Shown: positions 4,865 to 38,605, counted from the stretch's first letter. The stretch is DNA of 39,239 nt from Armatimonadota bacterium (GCA_043754515.1 JAYUUO010000126.1:1-39239); one strand, 5' to 3'. Numbers and translations are program-made. Notes: generated by a model not told the origin, from the sequence alone.

Positions 4865-5245
4865 AGGGGTAACTCGCCCCTGTCCGCCACGTTCGGGCGG
4901 CGTGGGACGGGTCTCCCGCCGGATGGCTTCCCGACGGCACTGACCGGGGTATTCTACACCGACTCGGCGCGGCACCGGCAGTGGCGGAACTTCCGCCGCA
5001 AAGCCCTCGGCGCAGCGCGGGCGGAGCCGAACGCCGACCTCGCCTCTTTGGTAGAAAGCCTACGTGCCTTTCTCGTCCCTCCCCTCGCCGCGCTCGCGGC
5101 CCGGGAGCCGTTCAGGTTCGACTGGCTCCCGGGCCGGGGCTGGCGGGCTAGACCGGGGTTCGGCACCGAGCCGCCCACGCCGCCGCCGTCCGGCGTGCCT
5201 TGATAGCGACGACGTAGCAAAGCAAGCGTTGGCGGTAGTGCGACA

Positions 5246-5273
5246 TGTCCTAGAAACGACCGTTAAAGAGACG
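5246..5273. repeat. 28-bp serine-recombinase crossover-like site (isolated copy)
   Basis: TGTCCTAGAAACG-AC-CGTTAAAGAGACG; right arm identical to that of the 36142 site. Confidence 0.65.
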
Positions 5274-5303: not shown

Positions 5304-5717
5304 TCAGATCGTGGTCGCCGCCTGGCCGGCTTCCGTGAAGAATGGGTGCTCGACCGTGGCCGACAGCGTCTCCACCGTCGTCTTGTCCGCGTCGCCTTCC
5401 GCGTAGAACTCGACCACGGCTAGCTTATCTACCTGATGCTTCCACGTGTTCGTCACCCTGCGCCACTCCGGTTTGCCCGTCGCCGGGTCCGCCGACACCA
5501 TCCACTCCGACAGGCCGTTCTCGAAGCCCCACACCAGCGCGGCGAAGTCGCCGGACGCGCGTGCCAGTGCCGGGTCGCTTCCCGGCTTCTCATCCCCGAT
5601 CGCCCACGCGCCTGGCGTCGTGTCGGCGGTGAAGCACCCAGAGCCGATGCGCCCCACGATGTCGAACATGCACGCCGTGTCCCACAGCATCGCCCCCGTG
5701 TAGCGCGTCTCCCCCAT
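5304..5717 (-). pseudogene. Truncated polymorphic-toxin-type Hint (PT-HINT) fragment
   Basis: GCFTADT (block A), VSADPATGKPEWRRVTNTW, LSATVEHPFF (block B TxxH). Stops before the C-terminal HN motif and has no toxin tip. Confidence 0.75.
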
Positions 5718-5764: not shown

Positions 5765-6296
5765 CTAGTGTTGAACAATTACATATACAACTGGTTTCCC
5801 CTCGATTTCCGTGTACTGTTTCGGGCCGAAAATGTACACGGAGTTCGCTAAGAACAACTCGTATTCGTCCATTAAAGATGGCTCATCCCCAATCACTCCC
5901 CCGTTGTTCGAGTACTTCAACACCGTCTGACGAGGCGCATCCGGCTCTTTTCTGAACTCGTACCCCTCCAATAACTGCATCAAAAAACAAGACTCAGATT
6001 CACCAGGGAACGAAGCGGGTTCTTCATCTCCCAGGTACCAGTAGGGGACACCTCCCACCTTATTGAAGGGATCGCCGGAATCTTCCACGACTACGGGCGA
6101 CCATCGAACGAACTGTAAAACGGGCACGTACTCGCTTCTGATTTCCGAAGCTTCGTCCGCGAAGGATAGAAACCGAAAACTATCAAAATAGTCTCGCAGA
6201 AAATCTTGCGTGACGTCTGCTTTGTCAGATCCCTCCACCATCCGTGGGATCAAAGAATTTTTCGTTTGACATCTCGTGCAAGCAAACAAAAGCAAG
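5765..6296 (-). pseudogene. 5'-truncated immunity-like protein (YwqG/DUF1963-like)
   Basis: KVGGVPYW, CFLMQL and YIF motifs; lower GC; the first ~40 codons of the ORF call are really resolvase DNA in another frame. Confidence 0.45.
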
Positions 6297-6482
6297 TAGC
6301 GTATTGCCTTCCCGAAGTGCCCTACTGAGTGCCTTGAGTCCCGGACGGGCATCCGTTTTCCCCGAAGCCCGATCCTCGTAAATATGGCCCGCCTCCACGC
6401 CCGCCGAAAGAAGCGCATCCTTCTGCAAGTCGAGCGTTTGTGACCCGTCCGCCTTAGAAACCCGCATATAGCCGATTAGCAT
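6297..6482 (-). pseudogene. tnpR: Tn3-family resolvase, 3'-truncated after about 62 codons
   Basis: MLIGYMRVSKADGSQTLDLQKDALL.AGV...IYEDRASG..D.RPGL...L.EGNTL, then homology ends abruptly. Confidence 0.85.
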
Positions 6483-6494
6483 GCTGTCATCCAC

Positions 6495-6600
6495 TGTCAC
6501 CTGAACGAACGTTTATGTGACAGGTGGAAGGATGCCGCGGAAGCACTTCCTTGCTGTCACATTACCCGTGTTATAGACTATATCCCGCAAACGGGTGTGC
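6495..6600. promoter_or_regulatory. res site of the Tn3-family element (site I 6495-6522 plus accessory subsites)
   Basis: TGTCACCTGAACG-AA-CGTTTATGTGACA dyad between divergent tnpR and tnpA; second TGTCACA 32 bp further on. Confidence 0.75.
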
Positions 6601-6628
6601 GGCGGATTAAAGGACACATATAAATTCC

Positions 6629-9600
6629 ATGCCCAGCGCCAGTGACACCGCCTATCCCTTCTTCAAAGCCGAACCGACAGACAAAGAACTTGCCGAGGTT
6701 TACACACCCATCGAAGACGAAATCGTATTCGCCCGGAAACGGACCAACCGGTCCCGTGAGTTGCCCTGTTGCTGTTGCTCAAAACCTTCCAACGCCTGGG
6801 ATACTTCGTCTCCTTTGCCGAAATACCGGAGTCCATCGTTCGCCACGTCGCAAGTTGTGCAGGTTTCCCCGATTTCCCCGAGATTCGGGAACTCCTGCGG
6901 GCGTATGACCGCGGAAGTACCCGGGACCGACACCGGGTGCTCGTGCGCGAGTATCTTGGGGTTATCGCCGATGGCAAAGCGGCTCGGAAGGTACTCATTC
7001 AAACCTGCTTCCAGGCGGCACGCACCCGCGAGGACCTGCCCGACATCATCAACGTAGCCATTGAGGAGTTGGTTCGCCAACGCTACGAGTTTCCCGCGTT
7101 CAGCACACTCTTACGGATCGCCCGAGCCACCCGCTATTCTCAGAACCGCGCCTATCAAGAACAGGTGTACCAGGCACTCTCTATAGAATCCCGGCAGCGA
7201 CTCCAGGCACTGCTTCGTCGGGAGGAGGGCGAGGCGCTCAGCGCGTGGGATCGGATCAAACGCGAACCCCACCGAGCTACCGCACTTCATTTCAAAGAGG
7301 CTCTGGAGCAATCCCATTGGCTTGAGCAACTCAACGCCGCCGCCGATGCGTTCGCCGATATTCCCGAGGTGAAAATCCGCCAGTTTGCCGCCGAAGCCCG
7401 GTCCCTGGATATGGCTTCGTTGAGCGACATGCCCGAACGCAAGCGTTTTATTCTGATGGCCGCCTTAATTCGTAAGCAGGTCGCCACGGCTCTCGACGAT
7501 GTGACGGACATGTTCTTGCGCCAAGTCAAGAGGATGCACCACCGGGCTGAAGAGGCACTTACTCTCTACCGAACCGCCCAGGCCGACCGTACCGATGCGC
7601 TCATTGAACGGCTACGCGACATCACCCTGGCCTACACGCAGGAAGGCACCCGTGACCAGCGTCTCGCTGCGGTCGAATCTCTCCTGGAGAAAGATGCCCC
7701 GCGCATCCTCGCCGACTGCAACGCCCACCGTGCGGTCGCCCTGAACAGTCATCTGCTGTTTCTGCCGCAGTTCTACAGCGGGCGACGTAGCGTCCTGTTC
7801 GCATTTCTGGGAGGCGTCACTCTGGTCCCCACAACACAGGACTAGGCCCTTCTCTCTGCCATCATCTTTTTGCGTGCCCATCGTGAGATTCGTGCAGAGC
7901 ATCTCACGATTTCGCTCGGTGAGGACCTTTCCCAGGCATCCCGACACCTGGATCTTTCCTTTGTTTCCGAGAAGTGGTGGTCCCTGGTCACCGGCAAACG
8001 GGAGAGGACTTCCATGGTGACGCGTGTGCACCGGCGTTACTTTGAACTATGCGTCTTCTTTGAAACGATGCAGTCGCTCAAGTCCGGGGATCTGTGTCTT
8101 CCGGGCAGCGAGCAGTTCAGCGACTACCGCCAGGAGTTGGTTTCCCAGGAGGAGTATCTACAGGGCATCACGGTGTATGGCGAGCAGGCCGGAATCCCTG
8201 TGGAAGGGAAGCTGTTTGTGGCGCACCTCCACCAGCAACTGGAGAGTGCCGCCCATACCACCGATGCGGGCTTCCCGGAGAATGAATACCTGCGCATCGA
8301 GAACGACGAACCCGTCTTGAAGCGGCTCCAACGCAAACCCGAGCCGACTGGTCGTCCAGAGATGGAACAACTCCTTGCCCAGCACATGAACGAAGTCGGC
8401 ATTGTGGACGCGCTCTCGGACACCGAACACTGGCTCCACTGGACCCGGCTCTTCGGTCCGCTCTCCGGGCATGACGCCAAGCTGGAGAATCCCCGCCACC
8501 GCTATCTGCTCACGACCTTCTGCTACGGCTGTGATCTGGGTCCGACGCAGACAGCCCGTTCGGTAAAAGGGCTGGACCGCCGCCAGGTCTCCTTCGTCAA
8601 CCAGCGGCACATCACCGAAGAGAACCTGAACCAGGCAATCACCACCGTGGTCAACGCCTACGCCCGGTTGCCGCTCCAGAAGGTATGGGGTTCGGGCAAA
8701 TCGGCCTCCGCCGATGGCACCAAGTGGGACATGAACGCTCAGAGCCTGATGGCGGAACACCACATTCGCTACGGGAGCTATGGTGGAATCGGCTACTACC
8801 TGGTCGCCGACTCCTACATCGCGCTGTATTCGCGCTTTTCGACCTGCGGTGCCTGGGAGGGCCACTACATCCTAGACTTCATTGAGGAGAACACCTCCGA
8901 CGTGCAACCTGACACCATTCACGCCGACACCCAGGGACAGAGCACCGCCATCTTCGGCTATCGTACTTGCTGGGTATTCATCTGATGCCCCGAATCCGCA
9001 ACTGGAAAGACCTGACGCTGTTTCGTCCCAGCAGCCAGCATCGCTACACCCACATCGATATGCTCTTCCGCGAGCAGGTAGACTGGGAACTGGTTCGGAC
9101 CATGTTGCCGGATATGCTGCGCGTCGCCCTCTCCATTCGAGCGGGCAAGATTATGCCCTCGACCATCCTGCGTCGGCTCGCGACCTACGGCCGCAGGAAC
9201 AAACTGTACTTCGCCTTCCGCGAACTGGGGCGCGTGGTGCGAACCATCTTCCTGCTCCAGTATGTCCAGAGCGTCGAGATGCGTCACGTCATCCAGGCGG
9301 TGACCAACAAGTCTGAGGCGTTCAACAAGTATGTGGACTGGGTCGGTTTCGGAGGCGCGGGCCTGCTCTCGCAGGGCACGCGCGATGAGCAGCGCAAGTT
9401 CATCAAATACAACCATCTGGTGGCGAACCTGCTGGCATTCCATACGCTGGTGAACATGACGCAGGCACTTCAGCGCATCCAGCAGTCCGGGCAGACGATA
9501 GACCTGGCGGCACTAGCCACATTCAATCCTTACCACACGGAACAATACAACCGGTCCGGCAGCTACACCCTCAATCCCAACCGTTTACCCGAGCCGTTGG

Positions 9601-9641
9601 CGCAGTATCTGGAGTTCCTGATCCCGGGAATTCCAGGCTGA
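6629..9641 (+). pseudogene. tnpA: Tn3-family transposase with two frameshifts (~6765, ~8960) and an in-frame TAG (7843-7845)
   Basis: DUF4158-like N-terminus (LLKTFQRLGYF), LKSGDL...GS..F.DY, WGSGKSASADGT, IHADTQG, LMPRIRNWKD, FRELGRVVRTIFLL, NKSEAFN. Confidence 0.92.
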
Positions 9642-9646
9642 TCCGG

Positions 9647-9684
9647 AAAAGTGTGGGTTTTTAACACGAATCCTTACTGACCCC
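9647..9684 (-). mobile_element. 38-bp Tn3-family terminal inverted repeat (right end)
   Basis: Reverse strand reads GGGGTCAGTAAGGATTCGTGTTAAAAACCCACACTTTT, immediately after the tnpA stop. Confidence 0.8.
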
Positions 9685-9758
9685 CTAGATATGTTGTATA
9701 CTGAGCGGCATGCTCAATGACGCATTGTTAAGTCGGGGGAGGCATTCGGGTTCCACAT

Positions 9759-28464: not shown

Positions 28465-28599
28465 GGTCGTCCCCGTGTGCTGGATGCGAGCAATCAGCAG
28501 ATAGCTCAGTCGCTTCGATCCGCCCTAAAGCAAACCATTACTGCGATCTGAAAGACGCTTGGCATCTCCCGCGCCACCTTCTATCGCTATACAAAATAG
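28465..28599 (+). pseudogene. C-terminal HTH remnant of a serine resolvase (paralog of 32124-32690)
   Basis: GRPRVLDASNQQIAQSLRSALKQTITAI*KTLGISRATFYRYTK* aligns with GRPAALDVGKQKIAQTLRDDTSQGVAAICKTLGVSRATFYRHT. Confidence 0.8.
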
Positions 28600-30434: not shown

Positions 30435-30469
30435 AAGTGTGGTTTTTTACACGAATCCTTACCACTCAC
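30435..30469 (-). mobile_element. Degenerate copy of the Tn3-family terminal IR
   Basis: AAGTGTGGTTTTTTACACGAATCCTTAC versus AAGTGTGGGTTTTTAACACGAATCCTTAC at 9649-9677; terminal CCCC is degenerate; same orientation. Confidence 0.65.
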
Positions 30470-30542
30470 CGTATACGGTCGGGGCGTGTCGGCTGCCCGC
30501 GCCGCGCGGCGTCCCGTGCCGTCCCGTCCTGGCGAGTCGGAG

Positions 30543-31854
30543 ACCCACGCACATCCCCACCACCGTTTCATTTCGTCTGAGATCTCGGACGAAATGGACC
30601 GGCCCGTCATCAGGGGGATGCCGGCCGAAGCCGCCCCGCCGGACGCCGACACGCTGATCCGCTCGTCGCCGGTGTCGGCCCGCGCCAATGTCGCCATCAC
30701 GGGACGCATACGCAGAAGGCGGGCGCGGTGGATGGCGTCCGGCACCCCGGTGGTTGAGGTTCGCGTCCGTTTCGTCGGCCCGCGTCTCGTCAGACCCCAT
30801 CGCCATGATCCGGTTCAGACTTCGTTCCCGTCACTTGCCTCACGTGCCCCCTTCGTCCCACCCGCCTCCTTTCCTCCTTGCGGCATTGGTCTCTTGGTGG
30901 CGGGCCTGCGAACAACGACACGCACCGGGCGGGATGCTTCGTGGCACCTGGTCACCCGGACCGGGTGTCTGATGCGCGAGAACCTGGCACCCTTTCCCGC
31001 CAGACCGCGAGACCGCGGTCGGGGCCATGTCCGGCTTCCCCGCGTCACCTTCGGCGTGGTCTTGCCGCTACTCGGGCGACCGATGCCGCAAGGAGGAAAG
31101 GAGGCGGGGGCGGGGAACCACGGAACCAAATGGAGGCGGGAAGCGGATGGAGAGGGAGGCACTGGTCCTCCCGGTAGGTCGCCATGCGGAGCTGAGATGC
31201 CTCGCCACGGACGGCCTCCTGGAGTTTGACGACCTGACGCTCAGCTTTCGTGTGGTCGCCGAAGCGTACCATGATCCCGTCATGCAGCCGGGAGAGCAGG
31301 TAGACCTGGCACTCCGATTTCAGCACGGGGACGCGAACGAGTGGCGGTAAGGGCGGCGCGGGGAGACGCCCACGCGCCCGCCCGTAGCCGCGCCGGGGCG
31401 CGGCTGGTCTCCACTTGGAGGGGAAAGCAGAAGAAGCATATTATTCTATGATGTTGATATAAAATGCTTGTAATCCCTTGTAAGAAATAGGGCCCCCAGT
31501 GCAAATCAATTCATCCCGATCGCGGCACCGGGCGCGAGCCGCGCGTCGGACGGCGGTACGGCGGGCGCGGTGACGGGGGGGTGACGATCATGTCAGCCGG
31601 CGCGGGTCGGGAGCGGGGCGTCCGGAACCGCGGCCCCCGACGCGCGGGAGTACCCGCGGCATCCATCCGCAGACGGGGCGCATGAGCGGCATCCGCCCGC
31701 GCCCGTACCGGCGTCCCGACCGCGGTGGCCCGCCTCGCCCAGCGCGGGTATGTCAGATCAACGCGGCTTCGGCCGGCGGCTCCCTGATGAGGGGCCGGGG
31801 GATTTCGTCCGTGATCGCGGACGAAATCGACCGGCGGTGGGGACGTGCGCGGGC
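30543..31854. repeat. Nested inverted repeats: 92-bp outer pair and 31-bp inner pair
   Basis: 30543-30634 vs reverse complement of 31763-31854 (75/92 by manual count, ungapped); 30861-30891 vs reverse complement of 31078-31108 (30/31). Confidence 0.85.
31147..31350 (+). CDS. Small hypothetical protein (67 aa)
   Basis: GGAGG upstream; protein-like composition (DGLLEFDDLTLSFRVVAEAYHDPV), unlike the surrounding R/P/G-rich shadow ORFs. Confidence 0.4.
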   Translation: MEREALVLPVGRHAELRCLATDGLLEFDDLTLSFRVVAEAYHDPVMQPGEQVDLALRFQHGDANEWR

Positions 31855-32123: not shown

Positions 32124-32690
32124 CTATGAAGGACCCCGGGCCGGGCCGACCGTATGCCGGTAGAACGTCGCGCGCGAGACGCCGAGCGTCTTGCAGATCG
32201 CGGCGACGCCCTGGCTCGTGTCGTCGCGTAGCGTCTGCGCGATCTTTTGCTTGCCCACGTCCAGCGCGGCGGGGCGGCCGCCCTGCCGACCCCGCGCCCG
32301 CGCCGCCGCGAGGCCCGCCCGCGTCCGCTCCCGGATCAGCGCGCGCTCGAACTCCGCGAGCGCGCCGAACACATGGAAGACGAGTCTGCCGCCAGGTGTA
32401 GTCGTGTCAATGCTTTCGGTCACGCTCTGGAATCCGACCCCGATCCCCTCGAGTTGCTCTATGACGGCGATGAGATGCTTAAGCGAGCGCCCGACCCGGT
32501 CGAGGCGCCAGACGACGAAGGTATCGCCTACGCGGGCGGCATCGAGCAGGCGCAGTAGTTCCGGGCGGTCGGTCTTGCCGCCCGACGCCTTCTCCTCGTA
32601 AACGCGGTCGCAGCCGGCGCGCTTCAAGGCGTCGCGCTGGAGGTCGAGGTTCTGGTCGTCGGTGCTGACGCGTGCGTATCCGAGTTTCAT
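32124..32690 (-). CDS. Small serine recombinase (Pin/Hin/resolvase family), intact
   Basis: MKLGYARVSTDDQNLDLQ, YEEKASG, VVWRLDRVGRS, IDTTTPGGRLVFHVFGALAEFERALIRERT.AGL.AARARGR.GGRP, HTH LGVSRATFYR; TATAAT 7 nt before ATG 32690. Confidence 0.95.
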   Translation of the reverse strand: MKLGYARVSTDDQNLDLQRDALKRAGCDRVYEEKASGGKTDRPELLRLLDAARVGDTFVVWRLDRVGRSLKHLIAVIEQLEGIGVGFQSVTESIDTTTPGGRLVFHVFGALAEFERALIRERTRAGLAAARARGRQGGRPAALDVGKQKIAQTLRDDTSQGVAAICKTLGVSRATFYRHTVGPARGPS

Positions 32691-32697
32691 GACGCCC

Positions 32698-32862
32698 ATT
32701 ATACCCGGCCGTATCAGAAGTCAGCGCGCCGGGGCGGTTCCGAAACGCTGATAAAGAGACGGTTTTCGGGACGAAAAGGCACCACCGAAGGTACGGATAG
32801 TGCCCCCCTACTTCGCTTCTTTTCGCTTCTTTTCCATCTCATTAACGCCCGTTTTTGAGACG
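32698..32862. promoter_or_regulatory. Promoter and res-like region of the resolvase, with crossover-like site at 32835-32862
   Basis: CATCTCATTAACG-CC-CGTTTTTGAGACG; accessory-like TCCGAAACGCTGATAAAGAGACGGTTTTCGGGACG at ~32739-32773; -10 box at 32698-32703. Confidence 0.7.
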
Positions 32863-32916
32863 AACGGAATAGGCCGGGGAAGGCGGGCGACCTTCCTCGA
32901 CGGTGGCCCCCCGTTC

Positions 32917-33807
32917 TCAGCCGGGGGGCCACTCGGGGAGACTCAAGCCTGCCCGCAAACCCTCCCAGAATAGTGGGTAGTCGAACTCCCGCCCGGTTTG
33001 GCGTAGCACCTCCCGTACGCCTGGTGCCCGGATACTCCCGTACAGTTCGCGCGCCCAATCGCGCACGTCCCGCGCCACCGGATTCGCCTCATACCGCCCC
33101 GCGATCACCGCCCCTTCGGAAATCTCCGCCTCGGTCAGCATCGCGGTAAGGACATACACATCGAACACGTGCTTCCCGCCGTTCGGCTTGGGCGGCAGTT
33201 CGCCCCGCTCGCGTCGGAGCCAGTCGTGGGCGGCGGCCACCTTCATCGTGAGCCAGGCATACGGGTGGGGGACGTGGACCGCCGCGTCGATAGATTCGCC
33301 CCGCGAGTTCGTGCCGGAAACGGGCAGCCGCAGGGGGCTGTCCTCGACCGCGAACGCTTCCGGCGTCTCGCGGCCGTGCAGATCCACCCCCGACCCGGAG
33401 CCGACGCGGCGGCCCTTGACCCGCACCGCCTCGCCCCCCGCCGGGGGGCGGGCGAGCAGGTCTATCTTGACGGTGCGTCCCGCCGCGTCAGGGCCGGAGG
33501 GCTTACCGAACTGCCACCGCGGCGTGTGCTCCTCGTAGCCCAGCCGATCGATGAGAGAACGCACCGCGATCCCCCGTTCTTTCTGGGCGAAGAGAGCCAG
33601 GCGTAAGAAGAAGTCCAGGTCCTGCGTCGCCCGCGCTTCGGGGACGACGGGGAACAGGGTGCCCGCGTCCGTCGCCTCCGAGTGGATCTGCTTGAGGCGC
33701 AGCCCGTACCCGCCGGCCAGTATCAGGCCCTCCGACGCGGGATCGGATAGGATGTCGAGCAGATGCCTGCGGAGGGGGTCGGCCGTTTCATTCATGGTCG
33801 TCATCAA
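32917..33807 (-). CDS. AbiEii-like nucleotidyltransferase, putative type IV TA toxin
   Basis: LILAGGYG...RATQDLDF (pol-beta NTase G-G/DxD), KIDLL, MK..A, K...D.Y.L; ATGA overlap with the upstream gene. Confidence 0.75.
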   Translation of the reverse strand: MMTTMNETADPLRRHLLDILSDPASEGLILAGGYGLRLKQIHSEATDAGTLFPVVPEARATQDLDFFLRLALFAQKERGIAVRSLIDRLGYEEHTPRWQFGKPSGPDAAGRTVKIDLLARPPAGGEAVRVKGRRVGSGSGVDLHGRETPEAFAVEDSPLRLPVSGTNSRGESIDAAVHVPHPYAWLTMKVAAAHDWLRRERGELPPKPNGGKHVFDVYVLTAMLTEAEISEGAVIAGRYEANPVARDVRDWARELYGSIRAPGVREVLRQTGREFDYPLFWEGLRAGLSLPEWPPG

Positions 33808-34871
33808 AAGGTTTCCCCTTTCAGGAAAAGGGCCTCCAGCACCTGCGCGGCTTCCTTCTCGCGCGGGCCGGAGTTAGACAGTTCCACGTAGGCCTGCACG
33901 GGCGACGCCCAGTCCGACGCCCCGTCCGTGCGCGCGTCGAAGTAGACCGCATCGCCGGCCTCTTCGACGATCTCGATGTTAGGGAAGACGCGTCCCGGCG
34001 TTATCCGGAGCAGCGTCTGCGCCTTCTCGAAGTCGTCCACATACAGCGACAGCCTCGCGGCCCCGGAGAGAAGCCCGTACCGCCCGGCGGAACCATCCCC
34101 GGTCGCGACGGCGCGCATCCCCGCCCCCCGCAGGAGCGACCACGCCTCGGAAGGAGGCAGGGTGGTCTTCCCCTCGACGCGCCTGCCGCGCGGCCGGGCG
34201 TAGTTCTGGCGCAGGTTCCGGAGCAGGAGTGCCGGGGAGAGTAGACTCAGCCCCGTCCCGGATCGCACGATGACGCGCTCCTCCTCGAGCACCCGGGCGG
34301 CTTTGGACGCGGTGCTCTTGGCGAGCCGGCTTTCCTTAGAAACCCCGGCGGCGGGGAGGAACCGGTCCAGCACGAAGGCGCGCAGGGCGGTGAGCGACGG
34401 GAAGACGGGCCGCAACAGGAAAGCGCGGGCGAAGAGCGCGCTGCTCCCCCGGTAGACGTTGCGCACCGGCTGCGATTCGCGGAAGCGGTTAGGGTGCCCG
34501 CCGCGCCAGATGGCCATCCCCGGCGCGCGGATCACGCCGTTGCCGCACAGATCGAAGGCACTCATGCCCGCCTCTTCGAGGTGCCGGAGCGATTCTTCGG
34601 GCAGGTAAGGGACGATCACGAGCGGCGACAGGCGGGCCGTCTTCGCGGCCCGCGACGCCTCCGCGACGGCCTGTTCGAGGGCCTTGGGGGCACTGCGGTT
34701 CTTGTAGACATAGGCGAAGTGGGCGGTGGCGTCGCCGAACCGGATCTCCAGGACGCCGCGCGCGTCACCCTCCCGGAGCCGCATCCGCGCGGGGAAGGGG
34801 CCGACGTCCCCGCACCTGAGTTTTTCGGCGAGGACGGCATCGGACCAGGGGGCACTGTAAGCGGTATCCAT
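33804..34871 (-). CDS. AbiEi-like antitoxin/transcriptional regulator (type IV TA)
   Basis: PLVIVPYL......L...G....DLCGN, central HTH-like LAKSTASKAARVLEE, C-terminal SPVQAYVEL...GPR.KEAA..L. Confidence 0.72.
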   Translation of the reverse strand: MDTAYSAPWSDAVLAEKLRCGDVGPFPARMRLREGDARGVLEIRFGDATAHFAYVYKNRSAPKALEQAVAEASRAAKTARLSPLVIVPYLPEESLRHLEEAGMSAFDLCGNGVIRAPGMAIWRGGHPNRFRESQPVRNVYRGSSALFARAFLLRPVFPSLTALRAFVLDRFLPAAGVSKESRLAKSTASKAARVLEEERVIVRSGTGLSLLSPALLLRNLRQNYARPRGRRVEGKTTLPPSEAWSLLRGAGMRAVATGDGSAGRYGLLSGAARLSLYVDDFEKAQTLLRITPGRVFPNIEIVEEAGDAVYFDARTDGASDWASPVQAYVELSNSGPREKEAAQVLEALFLKGETF

Positions 34872-34905
34872 ACGGTTGTGCTATGATACCCCGTTTCGCG
34901 TGATA

Positions 34906-34957
34906 TTTCCAAAAACGGACGTATTTCTATTATCGGAAACACGTCCGTTTTTGGAAA
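34906..34957. promoter_or_regulatory. 17-bp inverted repeat operator upstream of the AbiE-like operon
   Basis: TTTCCAAAAACGGACGT-N18-ACGTCCGTTTTTGGAAA overlapping the -35 position of a TATCAT -10 box (34883-34888, minus strand). Confidence 0.75.
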
Positions 34958-35014
34958 CACGGTTGCTAATGTCGAACGCCCCGCCGCCCCGTCTAGCTCG
35001 ATCCGCTATTGATC

Positions 35015-35042
35015 GGTCTCATTAACGACCGTTTCTGAGACG
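35015..35042. repeat. 28-bp crossover-like site
   Basis: GGTCTCATTAACG-AC-CGTTTCTGAGACG; 24/28 identical to 32835-32862. Confidence 0.8.
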
Positions 35043-35098
35043 GGTGATGCGAGGCAGCGGACGCCCCGTTTGTAGGCTGTGAAGGCGATTGAAGGCGA

Positions 35099-35698
35099 TT
35101 AACGGGAACGTCGCCGCGTGGCGCGATCAAACACGGGCGGCGCGATCCATTCGCCCAGTTCGGCTAGGCGCGATTCGATGGCCGCGCGTGCGGCCTCCGG
35201 AACGGCGCGAGTGGCAAGAACATCGAGCAGTGCCTGACGCTCGGTCTGCCAGCGCAAGCACCGCGCCCGGTGATACGCGAGCGATTCGCGCCAGAGGAGC
35301 AGGTGCTCGCTCGTGTACACGCCGATTTCCGTGAGCGGCGTGAGCGTCCCGTCGTCCCCCGCCCGCAGATGGCGGTCGTGGTCGTCTTCCGCGCGGCAGG
35401 GGTCGAGGAACCGCCGCCCCGCGTCATAGTCGGCGGGTGTTGGCCATGTGTCGCCTTTGTTCTGGTTGCATTCGCCGCAGCACCAATACAGGTTCTCGTA
35501 AACGCTCACGAGGTCGGGCCGGGCGGACGCGCCGGCCTGAGGGCGGTGGTGATCTATCTCCATTCCCGCCTCGCCGCCGACGAAAAATTCGTGCCGCAGG
35601 CAGTACGCGCACCGATGGCGAAAATCGACGCGGAGCAACAGGCGATAGCGGGTGTAGTCGGCGTAGACCCGGCGCGGCACGGAGCGGACGAAGATCAT
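35099..35698 (-). CDS. HNH endonuclease
   Basis: RCAYC...EIDHHRPQ...YENLYWCCGECNQNKG...FLDPC; ATGA overlap with the upstream ORF. Confidence 0.88.
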   Translation of the reverse strand: MIFVRSVPRRVYADYTRYRLLLRVDFRHRCAYCLRHEFFVGGEAGMEIDHHRPQAGASARPDLVSVYENLYWCCGECNQNKGDTWPTPADYDAGRRFLDPCRAEDDHDRHLRAGDDGTLTPLTEIGVYTSEHLLLWRESLAYHRARCLRWQTERQALLDVLATRAVPEAARAAIESRLAELGEWIAPPVFDRATRRRSR

Positions 35699-36117
35699 GG
35701 TACGGAGGCGACCGGCGGCAGGGCTTCGATCTGCCCGCGTAAGCGGGCGAACTCCTCGTCAATGAACCGCGCCGCACGCTCCCGTTGGTCGGCGCGTGGT
35801 GATTCGCGGTCAGCCGCGGCGATGTCGCTGCGCAGGCGATCCCATTCGGACTCTTCTTGAGCCGTCAGCCCCGCGGCCAGTTTTCGGTCCACGAGGGCGT
35901 GATAGCGTGCGAGAGCCCTCCCGTCGAGTGAAACCAATGCCGGAACGTCTTGATTGTGTGCCTCGGCGAGCAAACGCCGAAGCAAATCAGATAAGCCGCC
36001 CTCTTGTCGCTTTCCCCACTCGGCGAGCGATTCGTCTAAATAGACGGTCACCCGCGCGCGCCCGGCGTGCGCGACGGGGCCGCGCCGCCGCGTTAGTGAA
36101 TCCGTCTCTATTTGCAT
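35695..36117 (-). CDS. Putative antitoxin: RHH/CopG-like N-terminus plus helical C-terminus
   Basis: RVTVYLDESLAEWGKRQEGGLSDLLRRLL (strand-helix-helix pattern); RYHALVDRKLAAGLT.QEESE; TATAAT 6 nt before ATG. Confidence 0.6.
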   Translation of the reverse strand: MQIETDSLTRRRGPVAHAGRARVTVYLDESLAEWGKRQEGGLSDLLRRLLAEAHNQDVPALVSLDGRALARYHALVDRKLAAGLTAQEESEWDRLRSDIAAADRESPRADQRERAARFIDEEFARLRGQIEALPPVASVP

Positions 36118-36141
36118 ACCATAATTATACCGTAACAGTGA

Positions 36142-36169
36142 CGTAAAAGAAACTCACGTTAAAGAGACG
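36142..36169. repeat. 28-bp crossover-like site (left arm degenerate)
   Basis: CGTAAAAGAAACT-CA-CGTTAAAGAGACG; reverse complement starts CGTCTCTTTAACG like the other copies. Confidence 0.6.
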
Positions 36170-36289: not shown

Positions 36290-36766
36290 CTACGGCTCTT
36301 CCGCCTCCTCCGCTTGCTCTTGCCACGCTCGCGCCTCGTGCTTCTGTACGATGACGTGGAGGGCGAACTTTGCGACGAACCAGAGTGCCGCGAGTGTCGC
36401 CGGGGCGATGAGCACCGACCAGAGCAGGCCGACTACCATAGTCCCTGCTCGCGCCGCGACCGGCGCGTTTACTGGCTCGTGTTCTGATTGGTAGCGCGTG
36501 ACGAAGGCTCCAACCGCCAGGAGGAATAGTACGGCGGTCTCGGTGATGGCTTGCGCGGCAAGTTCGGTGCGACGGGTTAGCGCGAAGTAGCCGAAACCGT
36601 TCCAAAGATTCGGCTCTATCTCGCCCGTCGGCGCGTCGTCCGCGTCGCGTGTGGTTGCCGGTAGTGTTCGCTCTCGCTCCGTTGTCGTGTCGTCGAGATG
36701 CCTCGGCGGCGAAGCGGCGTCCGACGCCGCGCGGGTCGCCCGTTCGCCGAGCGGCAGAGGCGGCAT
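36290..36766 (-). CDS. Hypothetical two-TM membrane protein
   Basis: TGATG coupling with the upstream gene; two hydrophobic segments. Confidence 0.6.
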   Translation of the reverse strand: MPPLPLGERATRAASDAASPPRHLDDTTTERERTLPATTRDADDAPTGEIEPNLWNGFGYFALTRRTELAAQAITETAVLFLLAVGAFVTRYQSEHEPVNAPVAARAGTMVVGLLWSVLIAPATLAALWFVAKFALHVIVQKHEARAWQEQAEEAEEP

Positions 36767-37365
36767 CACGGCGCGGCGTCCTTCGCCGGGTTCGTCGCCA
36801 CGGTCCGGAGCGCGGACAGAACGCGGGCGGCGAGTGTTGAGGCATTCTTTTCCGCGTCGGTATCGCCTTCGTGCGGTTTGATGTAGCGAATGGTTCCATT
36901 CTCGTCTAACGCAAGCAGGCGCGGGCACGGCAGGGCATGGTACAGCGTGTCGGTGACACGCAGGTCGCCGTCGAGCAAAACGGCGGTACGCTTGGTGTCG
37001 AGTCCGGTGGCGCGGGCAAAGGTGCGGGCTTCTTCGGCTTCGTCGCTCTGGTATACGATCACCGTAGCGGCGGTTGTTGGCAGTACGCCTCCACGCTGAA
37101 ACCTGCCCCAGTGGGTTGCAACGGCGTGGCAGGCAGGACAACCGCAAAAGAAAAACAACGCGACTGGGCGTTTGGCAACGACAAACTCGGACAGTTTGCG
37201 TTTTATGCTGGTGTTCGCGTCGGACAGCGTGAAGTCTGGCGCGGCGGAACCGATGATAGGTAACTCGCTAGGCGGCGCGGCGTTGCTAACTTGTCCTGCT
37301 TGTACCGGCACGGCGAGCGGGAAGAGGATGGAAAGAACAAGGGATAACAGTCGCGGCGGCGTCAT
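36766..37365 (-). CDS. Exported redoxin (AhpC/TSA-TlpA-like thioredoxin fold)
   Basis: Signal peptide; IGSAAPDFTLSD, FFCGCPAC, LLD.D..V....Y.A..CP....LDENG.IRY. Confidence 0.8.
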   Translation of the reverse strand: MTPPRLLSLVLSILFPLAVPVQAGQVSNAAPPSELPIIGSAAPDFTLSDANTSIKRKLSEFVVAKRPVALFFFCGCPACHAVATHWGRFQRGGVLPTTAATVIVYQSDEAEEARTFARATGLDTKRTAVLLDGDLRVTDTLYHALPCPRLLALDENGTIRYIKPHEGDTDAEKNASTLAARVLSALRTVATNPAKDAAP

Positions 37366-37375
37366 GGCGGATTGA

Positions 37376-38605
37376 CTACCGTTTCGGCGCGGCGGGCTTG
37401 ACTTCCTGCTTCGCCGGGGCGGGGGCCGCCGGGGCGAGCCTCTGCTCCAGGAACGCGCTGACCGGGAGCGCGAGCCGCTGGCCGTTCGCGAGGCGCACGG
37501 TGACGCGGGCCTGGAAGAAGCCGCCGCCGTCCGCCGCCGCCACCCTCCGCGCCGCGTCCGGGGCGAGCGTGATGAGCAGCGTCCGCTCGGTAGCGGTCGC
37601 CGATGCCCCGGTTGCGGGCGGCAGGAGTCTGGCGGACACGGCGGGTTTGTCACATTCCGCCGTGATGCCGACGAAACAGGCCGCGACCCGCGCGGTCAGG
37701 GTCACCGCGCGGGAGAGCGAGGGCGGCGGTGTGTCCCCGGCTTTCGATGCGGCGAGGCCCGGCGCGGACGTCGCCCCCGCCCCCGGCGCGAGGGAGAACG
37801 CGACGACGCGTGGGCTGGCGGCGATGTCGCCGACGATCTCGCCGGTGACCACGATGCCCGCGCTCCGCCACGCGGCGGCGCGGACGCTCTTGTCGGACAC
37901 GGACGGCGCGAACGAGAGCATGCCGAACACGGGGCCGACGGGCGCGTCCGGCGCGGCGGACACGCGGTAGCGGAGCGCGCCGTTCTTGGCGTCCGGGAGT
38001 CGTTCGGTGCGGACGCCGGGGACGGCGGACGCGAGCGGCGGGACGGCGGCGTTGCCCCTGAGGAGGCGCGGGTCGGGCGTAGCGACGAGTACCACGCCAC
38101 CAGCAGTGCTTCGAGGCGCGGCAAGGTCGAGCGTGCCGAGCGGCAGGACGGAAAGGCTCGGCGCGGCAGAAACAGAACTCCCGGCGGCGAAGGAGACGGC
38201 GGGCAGGAGGGTGCCGCGCACGGCGAGTCGGGTGAGGACGAACTCCGCGCCACCCGTAGACGGCTTCGCGTAGACGACGACCGTTTTGGTAAACGGGCCG
38301 GGGCGCAGTTCGGCCAGGTCAATCGAGACGGCGACGGACAGGGTTCTGCCCGGCGCGAACACCCGGGGGAGGCTCGCGGCTTCGCCTGCGGCAGATAATG
38401 CTGCCGAGACACAGTGGCAGGACGGGGATAGGCGCGTGACGACCACGGGGCCGCTTAGGGCGCGGAGCGTGAAGATCCGCCGGGCGGCAGGCGCGACGTC
38501 TAGAAGGGAGACGACGCCGACGTCACAGGCGTCGGCGTTCGGCACCTGTAGCTCTTGGTGAAGGGCGGGAACCGCAGGCGGTGGCTGAAAGGGAGCGGTA
38601 ATCAC
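37376..38605 (-). CDS. DUF1573-domain (Ig-like) protein
   Basis: FTL.....PVVVTRL.PSCHC.SA...PG....V.V.ID.....G.F.KTV.V; GTG start 5 nt after TATGAT. Confidence 0.65.
   Translation of the reverse strand: MITAPFQPPPAVPALHQELQVPNADACDVGVVSLLDVAPAARRIFTLRALSGPVVVTRLSPSCHCVSAALSAAGEAASLPRVFAPGRTLSVAVSIDLAELRPGPFTKTVVVYAKPSTGGAEFVLTRLAVRGTLLPAVSFAAGSSVSAAPSLSVLPLGTLDLAAPRSTAGGVVLVATPDPRLLRGNAAVPPLASAVPGVRTERLPDAKNGALRYRVSAAPDAPVGPVFGMLSFAPSVSDKSVRAAAWRSAGIVVTGEIVGDIAASPRVVAFSLAPGAGATSAPGLAASKAGDTPPPSLSRAVTLTARVAACFVGITAECDKPAVSARLLPPATGASATATERTLLITLAPDAARRVAAADGGGFFQARVTVRLANGQRLALPVSAFLEQRLAPAAPAPAKQEVKPAAPKR

Follow-up and report, generated by a model that had tools for sequence, protein, structure and literature searches.

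Small serine recombinases are often found beside toxin-antitoxin (TA) or defence genes, and the usual account places one TA pair at one res. A 'shuffling function of resolvases' was reportedly described by Kholodii in 2001. Integrons employ the tyrosine integrase IntI together with attI and attC sites, and their cassettes carry a site wherever they are found and are mostly promoterless. Here we describe a small serine recombinase gene, its res and two adjacent gene modules in a 39,239-nucleotide stretch of DNA from an Armatimonadota bacterium (GCA_043754515.1, JAYUUO010000126.1:1-39239), which is referred to as the window and in which copies of the crossover site of the recombinase lie beside the modules. 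In Tn3-family transposons, according to excerpts of 10.1101/848275 (PMC7157771), TA genes lie by site I and the resolvase by site III, and modules are exchanged at or near site I. The summary of PMC9501444 describes CinH-RS2 of Acinetobacter plasmids as a small serine resolvase that recognises foreign res and reshuffles neighbouring DNA. For the invertases Gin and Hin, Table 1 of PMC3985619 lists core sequences AAAC(C/G)-NN-(C/G)GTTT in simple 13-2-13 dyads, and the excerpted text of PMC3575834 deals with these enzymes and the activation of Gin.

The layout at this locus consists of a full res, a module and a copy of site I that lacks accessory subsites (a bare site I), and it recurs in unrelated loci far above chance. 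The sites are probably, if far from surely, scars left where the resolvase on rare occasions recombined site I or its look-alikes; the modules would in this way have been stacked into an array that is now locked. The recombinase, its res and the four sites are the following.

32124 to 32690, minus strand: small serine recombinase of 188 aa, with a Gin/Hin/Pin-clade catalytic domain and a helix-turn-helix (HTH), behind a three-part res
about 32700 to 32779: accessory subsites (II/III) of res, which overlap the promoter region of the recombinase
32835 to 32862, plus strand: site 1, the recombinase's own (cognate) site I for crossover, with a CC centre; it precedes the recombinase start by 144 bp, a position typical of family dyads
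35015 to 35042, plus strand: site 2, a bare site I copy, centre AC, arms oriented as in site 1, without accessory subsites
36142 to 36169, minus strand: site 3, a hybrid with reversed arm orientation, 24 bp upstream of the module B start
5246 to 5273, minus strand: site 4, a further bare site I copy in the left-edge region of the island, plus-strand centre AC

The recombinase matches Pfam Resolvase (1.8e-47) and HTH_7, and its best PDB matches are Gin invertase (1.4e-53) and gamma-delta resolvase (2.7e-27). The catalytic motifs, the R8/S10-equivalent RVST and DRVGR, are intact. The elements upstream of the gene follow the resolvase order, with a distal 28-bp site I and proximal accessory subsites. 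An accessory profile built from 61 family regions between start codon and dyad, with the present window left out, scores 19.9 bits at 32700-32779, against a maximum of 4.6 among 2000 low-GC control fragments, and conserved blocks are found in this region among the six closest homologues. The same profile finds no accessory subsites on either side of sites 2, 3 and 4; it is not fully sensitive, having missed two of the cognate sites tested (L181 and L237). A preliminary description of this DNA, which had proposed an intact Pin/Hin-like recombinase with its res and accessory subsites at the first copy only, is upheld in both respects. Judged by its sequence, the recombinase is a Gin-clade enzyme with a resolvase-type res, for which site 1 is the predicted crossover site and sites 2-4 appear as bare copies. 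A second full res of the same type was not found in the genome assembly.

The three 13-2-13 dyads first described at 32835, 35015 and 36142 are present with the plus-strand centres CC, AC and CA. That description mentioned four sites while listing three, and a further copy, which it had overlooked, exists at 5246-5273. Sites 1 and 2 are identical at 24 of 28 positions. Site 3 matches best in reverse, its reverse complement agreeing with site 1 at 19 and with site 2 at 20 of the 28. A scoring matrix trained on 71 family sites, with the present window excluded, gives 25.9 for site 1, 24.8 for site 2, 19.5 for site 4 and 15.8 for site 3; the scores of sites 1, 2 and 4 are reached by none of 5.08 million other genome positions, and that of site 3 by three. 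When a matrix of sites 1-3 is run over the 5.13-Mb genome, the next-ranked position is 5246 on the same contig (30.5), and the best score on other contigs is 18.8.

The order on the plus strand is site 4, a broken Tn3-family transposon, a sugar-utilisation block, the recombinase, the accessory sites, site 1, module A, site 2, module B and site 3. With T denoting the TCTCwTTAAC arm, the arm types on this strand are A-T at site 4, T-A at sites 1 and 2, and A'-T at site 3. By arm type, site 3 is inverted relative to sites 1 and 2 and is not the co-oriented consensus copy for which it had been taken. The T arm variant (TCTCwTTAA) is present in all four copies and in only 1 of 86 other cognate sites; because this arm is shared here and rare elsewhere, the four copies seem to represent one lineage rather than random members of the family. 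The plus-strand centres of sites 4, 1, 2 and 3 are AC, CC, AC and CA. None of the three pairs among sites 1-3 has matching centres in either orientation, and the only centre-matched pair, sites 2 and 4 (both AC), lies 29.8 kb apart. The contigs of one sequencing run, belonging to the study of the possible source, cover site 1 and sites 2-3 without any difference from the window, and near-identical pieces of the recombinase and the modules occur in three other sequencing studies, which argues that the layout is not an assembly artefact. Contigs of four sequencing runs, which show presence only, contain no rearranged joints at the sites.

A related dyad occurs in 75 of the 107 homologue loci with at least 200 bp of upstream sequence each (the present window included), mostly 106-208 bp from the start codon. 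The predicted enrichment of the motif near this resolvase family is borne out, and it is strong. The family consensus core is AAAAC(G/C)-NN-(C/G)GTTTT, and the centre varies freely, being palindromic in only 4 of 75 sites. This avoidance of palindromes, unlike the AT of Tn3 res, may enforce directionality. A dif/pdif reading (11-6-11) was dropped, since the dyad accompanies the serine resolvase at a constant distance. The exact consensus pattern of the window has 10 matches in genome_contigs, about the chance level, and none lies by a resolvase. A degenerate family pattern with one mismatch allowed gave 35 sites in 25 of 401 phylum genomes, against about 31 in the reversed-pattern control; because such matches are no commoner than the control, later counts were restricted to high-scoring sites.

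The sites lie next to two modules, each a pair of coupled genes, and both modules read towards res.

32917 to 33804, minus strand: module A gene 2, AbiEii-like nucleotidyltransferase (NTase), type IV toxin-like, with its stop 54 bp from site 1
33804 to 34871, minus strand: module A gene 1, an AbiEi-like antitoxin/regulator whose gene is coupled to that of the toxin
about 34906 to 34957: inverted repeat of 22 bp over the module A promoter, likely the AbiEi operator
35099 to 35698, minus strand: module B gene 2, HNH endonuclease with a PtuB-like resemblance and its stop 56 bp from site 2
35695 to 36117, minus strand: module B gene 1, small putative ribbon-helix-helix (RHH) regulator/antitoxin, coupled to the HNH gene

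The AbiEii-like gene matches Pfam AbiEii at 24.9 bits (cut-off 22.5), and its homologues are paired with an AbiEi-like gene in 15 of 15 homologous regions. The AbiEi-like gene has no Pfam match of its own and clusters in the ESM Atlas with AbiEi_2 at 0.95-0.97. The arms of the inverted repeat are 95% complementary, similar inverted repeats precede the homologues, and all four promoter-like matches of the region fall within it. Pfam, the ESM Atlas and the promoter matches agree with the proposal of a coupled AbiEi-like and NTase pair with its own promoter. With a regulator, an NTase, coupling and an inverted-repeat operator, module A has the features expected of an AbiE type IV pair; PADLOC gives no match for it. 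Each operator arm also scores as a weak site I (15.1 and 13.9), and homologous operators are less site-like; the site-like scores at 34905 and 34931 were rejected as crossover sites, as they represent the AbiEi operator.

Site 2 lies 143 bp upstream of module A, and site 3 overlaps the module B promoter. These positions would suit an explanation in which the extra dyads are mere binding sites, from which the recombinase represses or insulates the promoters of the neighbouring TA pairs. However, the modules possess their own regulators and operators, and bare sites in relatives are often located between convergent genes or away from any recombinase gene, which renders this explanation scarcely credible.

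The HNH gene of module B matches Pfam HNH at 22.8 bits (cut-off 21.4) and PADLOC PtuB/PtuA HNH models to 7e-14, and it scores under the NCBIfam cut-offs. A Septu (PtuAB) or retron assignment does not apply, because the partner of the HNH protein is a 140-aa non-ATPase. In this small protein, RVTVYLD and two helices are conserved across nine aligned homologues; no family-library or structure match confirms the RHH identity, and the fold is unconfirmed (predicted local distance difference test, pLDDT, 62). Of the RHH and HNH pair proposed earlier, the coupling and the HNH gene stand, and the RHH label is plausible by its sequence pattern. The same genome contains five further paralogues of the module B HNH gene (on C246, C5, C304, C258 and C281), none with a site I within 1.5 kb.

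Site 3 combines two kinds of arm. The inner arm is the promoter/operator motif of module B, and the outer arm is a true site I arm, identical to that of site 4, which sits exactly 2 bp outside the inner one. The TTTACGTC motif is present upstream of the small gene in all seven homologous loci having upstream sequence, with or without a resolvase. Scored as half-sites, the arms of site 3 in the window reach 7.2 and 8.7. In seven relatives the promoter motif scores 12.4, 8.3, 7.9, 3.9, 3.1, -0.1 and -11.9, and the outer-arm position scores -15 to -36 in six and 2.7 in one. Such a make-up is what capture at a pseudo-site would be expected to leave. The site 3 junction is not mappable from relatives, which are too distant; a DNA search of 71 class genomes gave coding similarity only. 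The inner arm of site 3 is shared with the relative G012:C145, and the idea of a module carrying its own site was dropped because the motif is the promoter motif of the module. A presumed likeness to the inner end of a Tn3 inverted repeat was also discarded, as site 3 has no GGGG end and differs from the island's own repeat.

The module homologues that were compared are distant (24-66% protein identity). None of the 15 regions with an AbiE-pair homologue is bracketed by sites, and 1 of 24 HNH loci has a strong site within 1.5 kb; homologues of both modules are mostly found without the site. The one HNH locus, G012:C145, encodes the closest recombinase found (76%), and the same RHH-HNH pair, oppositely oriented, lies directly past the site I of that recombinase. 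Before the promoter there is a match to site 3 that has decayed (17/26) and whose level 2 of about 40,000 positions reach, and the HNH stop is closely followed by a weak dyad (13.5; background 3.3 per Mb). In another relative (L181, G055:C118, 5149-6044), a perfect inverted, centre-matched site I pair 868 bp apart lies upstream of the family recombinase and forms a candidate invertible segment. The Gin-clade enzyme, the orientation of module B opposite to that found in G012 and the inverted pair beside the G055 homologue are consistent with a multi-site inversion switch of the Gin/Hin/Min kind, in which module B would flip between sites 2 and 3 and change the facing of genes and promoters. In contrast, the centres of sites 2 and 3 for inversion read AC versus TG, different at both positions, each module has its own promoter, and the gene has a resolvase-type res. 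We regard such a switch as very improbable.

A first count over 113 other loci gave 17 non-cognate sites against a shuffle mean of 1.0. It included sites 285-533 bp from a resolvase, probably displaced cognate sites, which were dropped in a stricter count of 149 resolvase loci, 87 of them with a cognate site. Dyad pairs 69-191 bp apart (L236, L237, L242, L247 and L083) were excluded as modules, because they may be subsites of one res. Beyond site I, six extra sites occur in 317 kb, distributed over 6 of the 67 loci with at least 1 kb, where about 0.1 would be expected (the site background is 0.39 per Mb in the present genome). Past the 3' end of the resolvase gene there are two extra sites in 335 kb (2 of 72 loci). 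Two of the extra-site regions (L181 and L237) had been lengthened after a site there was noticed. None of the extra bare sites has accessory subsites above the control level. In related genomes the sites form clusters even where a resolvase gene is absent: of 19 strong sites, 5 are accompanied by another at a distance of 0.25-6 kb, against 0.06 expected.

The cargo between res and bare site is mixed, comprising parDE, an EamA transporter, a kinase-TPR gene, an HTH gene and DUF6785 with an insertion sequence (IS); one inverted site pair among the extra-site loci has no clear gene. On the complete Salipiger plasmid pPABY8, parDE lies between the res site I and a bare site located 9 bp beyond the stop of the toxin gene. 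The scan of named plasmid regions covered ten, of which one has the layout and one is a look-alike. The bare-looking site of pBS1142 was rejected as a cassette border, being a cognate site I detached by a transposon insertion. G002:C558, from a same-genus genome, has three sites, with a gene-less full res followed by a module and then a bare site, and another bare site there precedes an AbiEi gene. Between 1767 and 6150 of this contig (L234), the sites lie in or beside an island bounded by a duplicated rpoC 3' end, with a tyrosine-integrase fragment. Each close homologue has other genes beyond its site I; a near-identical platform that carries different cargo was not encountered.

Three- or four-site clusters occur in G002:C558 and G063:C135. 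Together with the recurrent layout, a single full site followed by simple sites, self-contained modules with their own promoters, and an enzyme nearer Gin, which acts on simple dyads of similar core sequence, they could point to a working integron-like platform in which res is the attI, bare sites are the cassette sites and modules are reordered at a useful rate despite mismatched centres. Such a platform is quite improbable, however, as the centres are incompatible, the third site is inverted and hybrid, the arrays are short, the modules are mostly unbracketed elsewhere, and no activating residue is peculiar to this recombinase (positions 104, 106 and 114 follow the family norm). The operating array of integron or pdif type that had been proposed is likewise disfavoured by the differing centres, by modules that are mostly site-free elsewhere and by the cargo of relatives, which is not mainly defence. 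It is improbable that the Gin-clade resolvases of this family serve generally as a platform for gene capture, with an attI-like res, with bare sites and TA-promoter half-site mimics as cassette sites, and with low-level recombination, tolerant of a mismatched centre, by which TA/defence arrays would be built and reshuffled.

The island around the recombinase contains remnants of further mobile elements.

6225 to 9686: broken Tn3-family transposon (Pfam DUF4158, DDE_Tnp_Tn3 and Resolvase), in the same island
6225 to 6482, minus strand: truncated Tn3 resolvase, with its own dyad at 6495-6522
6629 to 9641, plus strand: Tn3 transposase in pieces, with an inverted-repeat-like end at 9651-9686
28480 to 28593, plus strand: C-terminal fragment of another family resolvase (tblastn 60% over residues 143-180), with an internal stop

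No intact Tn3-family transposon surrounds the recombinase, and only the broken transposase, 23 kb off with its own truncated resolvase, is found; the family homologue in G018:C150 adjoins the start of a DUF4158 transposase. The locus might represent a graveyard of nested Tn3-family elements, in which the modules arrived with their own full res and later indels left site I only, a history that calls for no unusual recombination. The broken Tn3, two more resolvase remnants and an IS21 remnant in the island are in keeping with this history, and gene-less full res are found in relatives (L234, L235, L240, L244, L245 and L248). The usual place of a TA pair is immediately downstream of site I, and module B occupies it both at site 3 and in G012; differing centres would be natural for different elements, and an insertion in the res spacer detaches site I. 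On the other hand, deletions at random would need to have ended a few bases from an arm on three occasions without leaving a spacer or subsite, the rare arm is common to the four sites, and site 2 faces module A with the arm that faces the accessory sites in site 1. Decay of nested elements, the main rival reading, is on balance unlikely, while retaining appreciable weight.

Several further observations concern the island itself. Genes in common with same-genus genomes are found up to about 4862 and not beyond. Just 12 bp upstream of the start of the truncated Tn3 resolvase lies a site-I-like dyad, and a weak accessory signal (6.6 bits) is present on the side of the transposase, which inverts the usual order of res; TniR-type resolvases of two plasmids have a similar dyad directly before the start (L275 1371 and L281 3429). 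A carbohydrate-use block at 9759-30092 (49-55% GC), with a rhamnosidase, a GntR regulator, CBM proteins and a trypsin-like PEP-CTERM-type protein, is flanked by the Tn3-type inverted-repeat end at 9651-9686 and a similar same-orientation sequence at about 30440-30480. A 91-bp inverted repeat (82%; 30544-30634 and 31763-31853) encloses a 1.1-kb GC-rich stretch, and one glacier contig joins its arms on opposite strands, which hints at inversion or a repeat family. A reading-frame remnant at 4952-5203, 42 bp before site 4, looks by eye like the C-terminus of an AbiEii toxin and has no match in Pfam, NCBIfam, PADLOC or a plasmid tblastn. The T arms of sites 4 and 3 adjoin DNA (5304-5717 and 36290-38605, respectively) with paralogues near RHS/Hint-type genes elsewhere in the genome, on C200 and on C250, C269 and C40 (79-91% identity).

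Scars of rare recombination could have arisen as follows. A resolvase with a three-part res would ordinarily act on dimers, resolving them at two full res sites. On rare occasions the res-bound enzyme would join site I to another site I or to a half-site mimic, and every junction so formed would keep a bare or hybrid site I. Such events, repeated and retained if they brought an addictive TA-like pair with its own promoter, would have stacked modules A and B beyond site I and left a further scar at 5246. The present state would be locked by the differing central dinucleotides and by accessory subsites at one site only. Rare recombinase-driven events are suggested by the arm that the four sites have in common, by the hybrid make-up of site 3 and by the repeated occurrence of bare sites where modules end. 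Excerpts of PMC12217951 state that recombination does not occur at an isolated site I of Tn3 and that it takes special circumstances for fusions to form. The array should be nearly inert, because mismatched centres give trace recombinants and accessory elements are needed. This course would imply that the recombinase made the junctions, in a particular order, and that the array is inert today.

Several points weigh against this interpretation. According to the excerpted text of PMC11607074, recombinants between sites with different central 2 bp are found at most in traces, and wild-type enzymes depend on accessory elements. No junction at this locus is mapped by DNA homology to a site centre, the relatives being too distant. 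Canonical exchange predicts matching flanking centres, and a direct match is found in one of eight res/bare centre pairs in relatives and in none of the three pairs here (an inverted match in two of the eight; about 10% expected for each). This reading does not account for the shared arm without its neighbouring spacer, a transposon insertion between site I and the accessory sites likewise detaches site I, as in pBS1142, and the enrichment upstream versus downstream is weak (6/67 vs 2/72). The alternative of scars of past events, raised as a caveat in the preliminary description, nevertheless reads better than an active array, as the centres CC, AC and CA are mutually incompatible. Its proposal of a recombinase that captures and stacks cassettes survives in part: the motif is the family site I, there is a single full res and the layout recurs, and the operating array is not sustained. 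The locus is a real, recurrent and testable variant of resolvase-mediated shuffling, whose sites are most likely scars, and the evidence falls short of an integron analogue.

The TA transposons of the Tn3 family (Lima-Mendez et al.), as described in excerpts, have one TA pair and one full res, with the pair downstream of site I. In contrast, the present locus has two stacked modules that read towards res, with a bare or hybrid site I between them and no intact linked transposase. For CinH-RS2, the summary of PMC9501444 deals with full res sites (119 bp) and makes no mention of bare 28-bp module borders. Gin/gix and Hin/hix resemble the present family in the simple dyad core, and Gin is the closest solved structure; these invertases use two inverted, centre-matched sites and Fis, whereas the present gene has accessory subsites by one site and unmatched centres. 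Integrons and pdif modules (for pdif, the summary of PMC9501444) share with the locus a platform site, modules split by simple sites and a TA-rich cargo. They employ tyrosine recombinases, whereas the locus has a serine recombinase and modules that carry promoters and are mostly site-free elsewhere; instead of an IntI tyrosine integrase and folded sites of attC type, double-stranded dyads are found. TA pairs beside site I, exchange there and promiscuous res recognition are known. A full-text literature search that covered few subscription papers and no supplements found no description of modules with a bare site I on their borders or of arrays of such sites. If the recombinase makes the junctions, resolvases would be a route for gene capture and stacking, and there would be exceptions, mattering in evolution, to the rule that site I needs accessory sites and a matched centre. 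The four natural sites, with known centres, are a ready substrate set for testing. Were the platform reading true, integrons and pdif modules would have a counterpart based on a serine recombinase, and the frequent presence of TA and defence genes next to such recombinases would be explained. Compared with the account of one TA pair at one res, the crossover site itself is copied here to the far side of the modules, a layout that occurs about 50 times above chance in several phyla.

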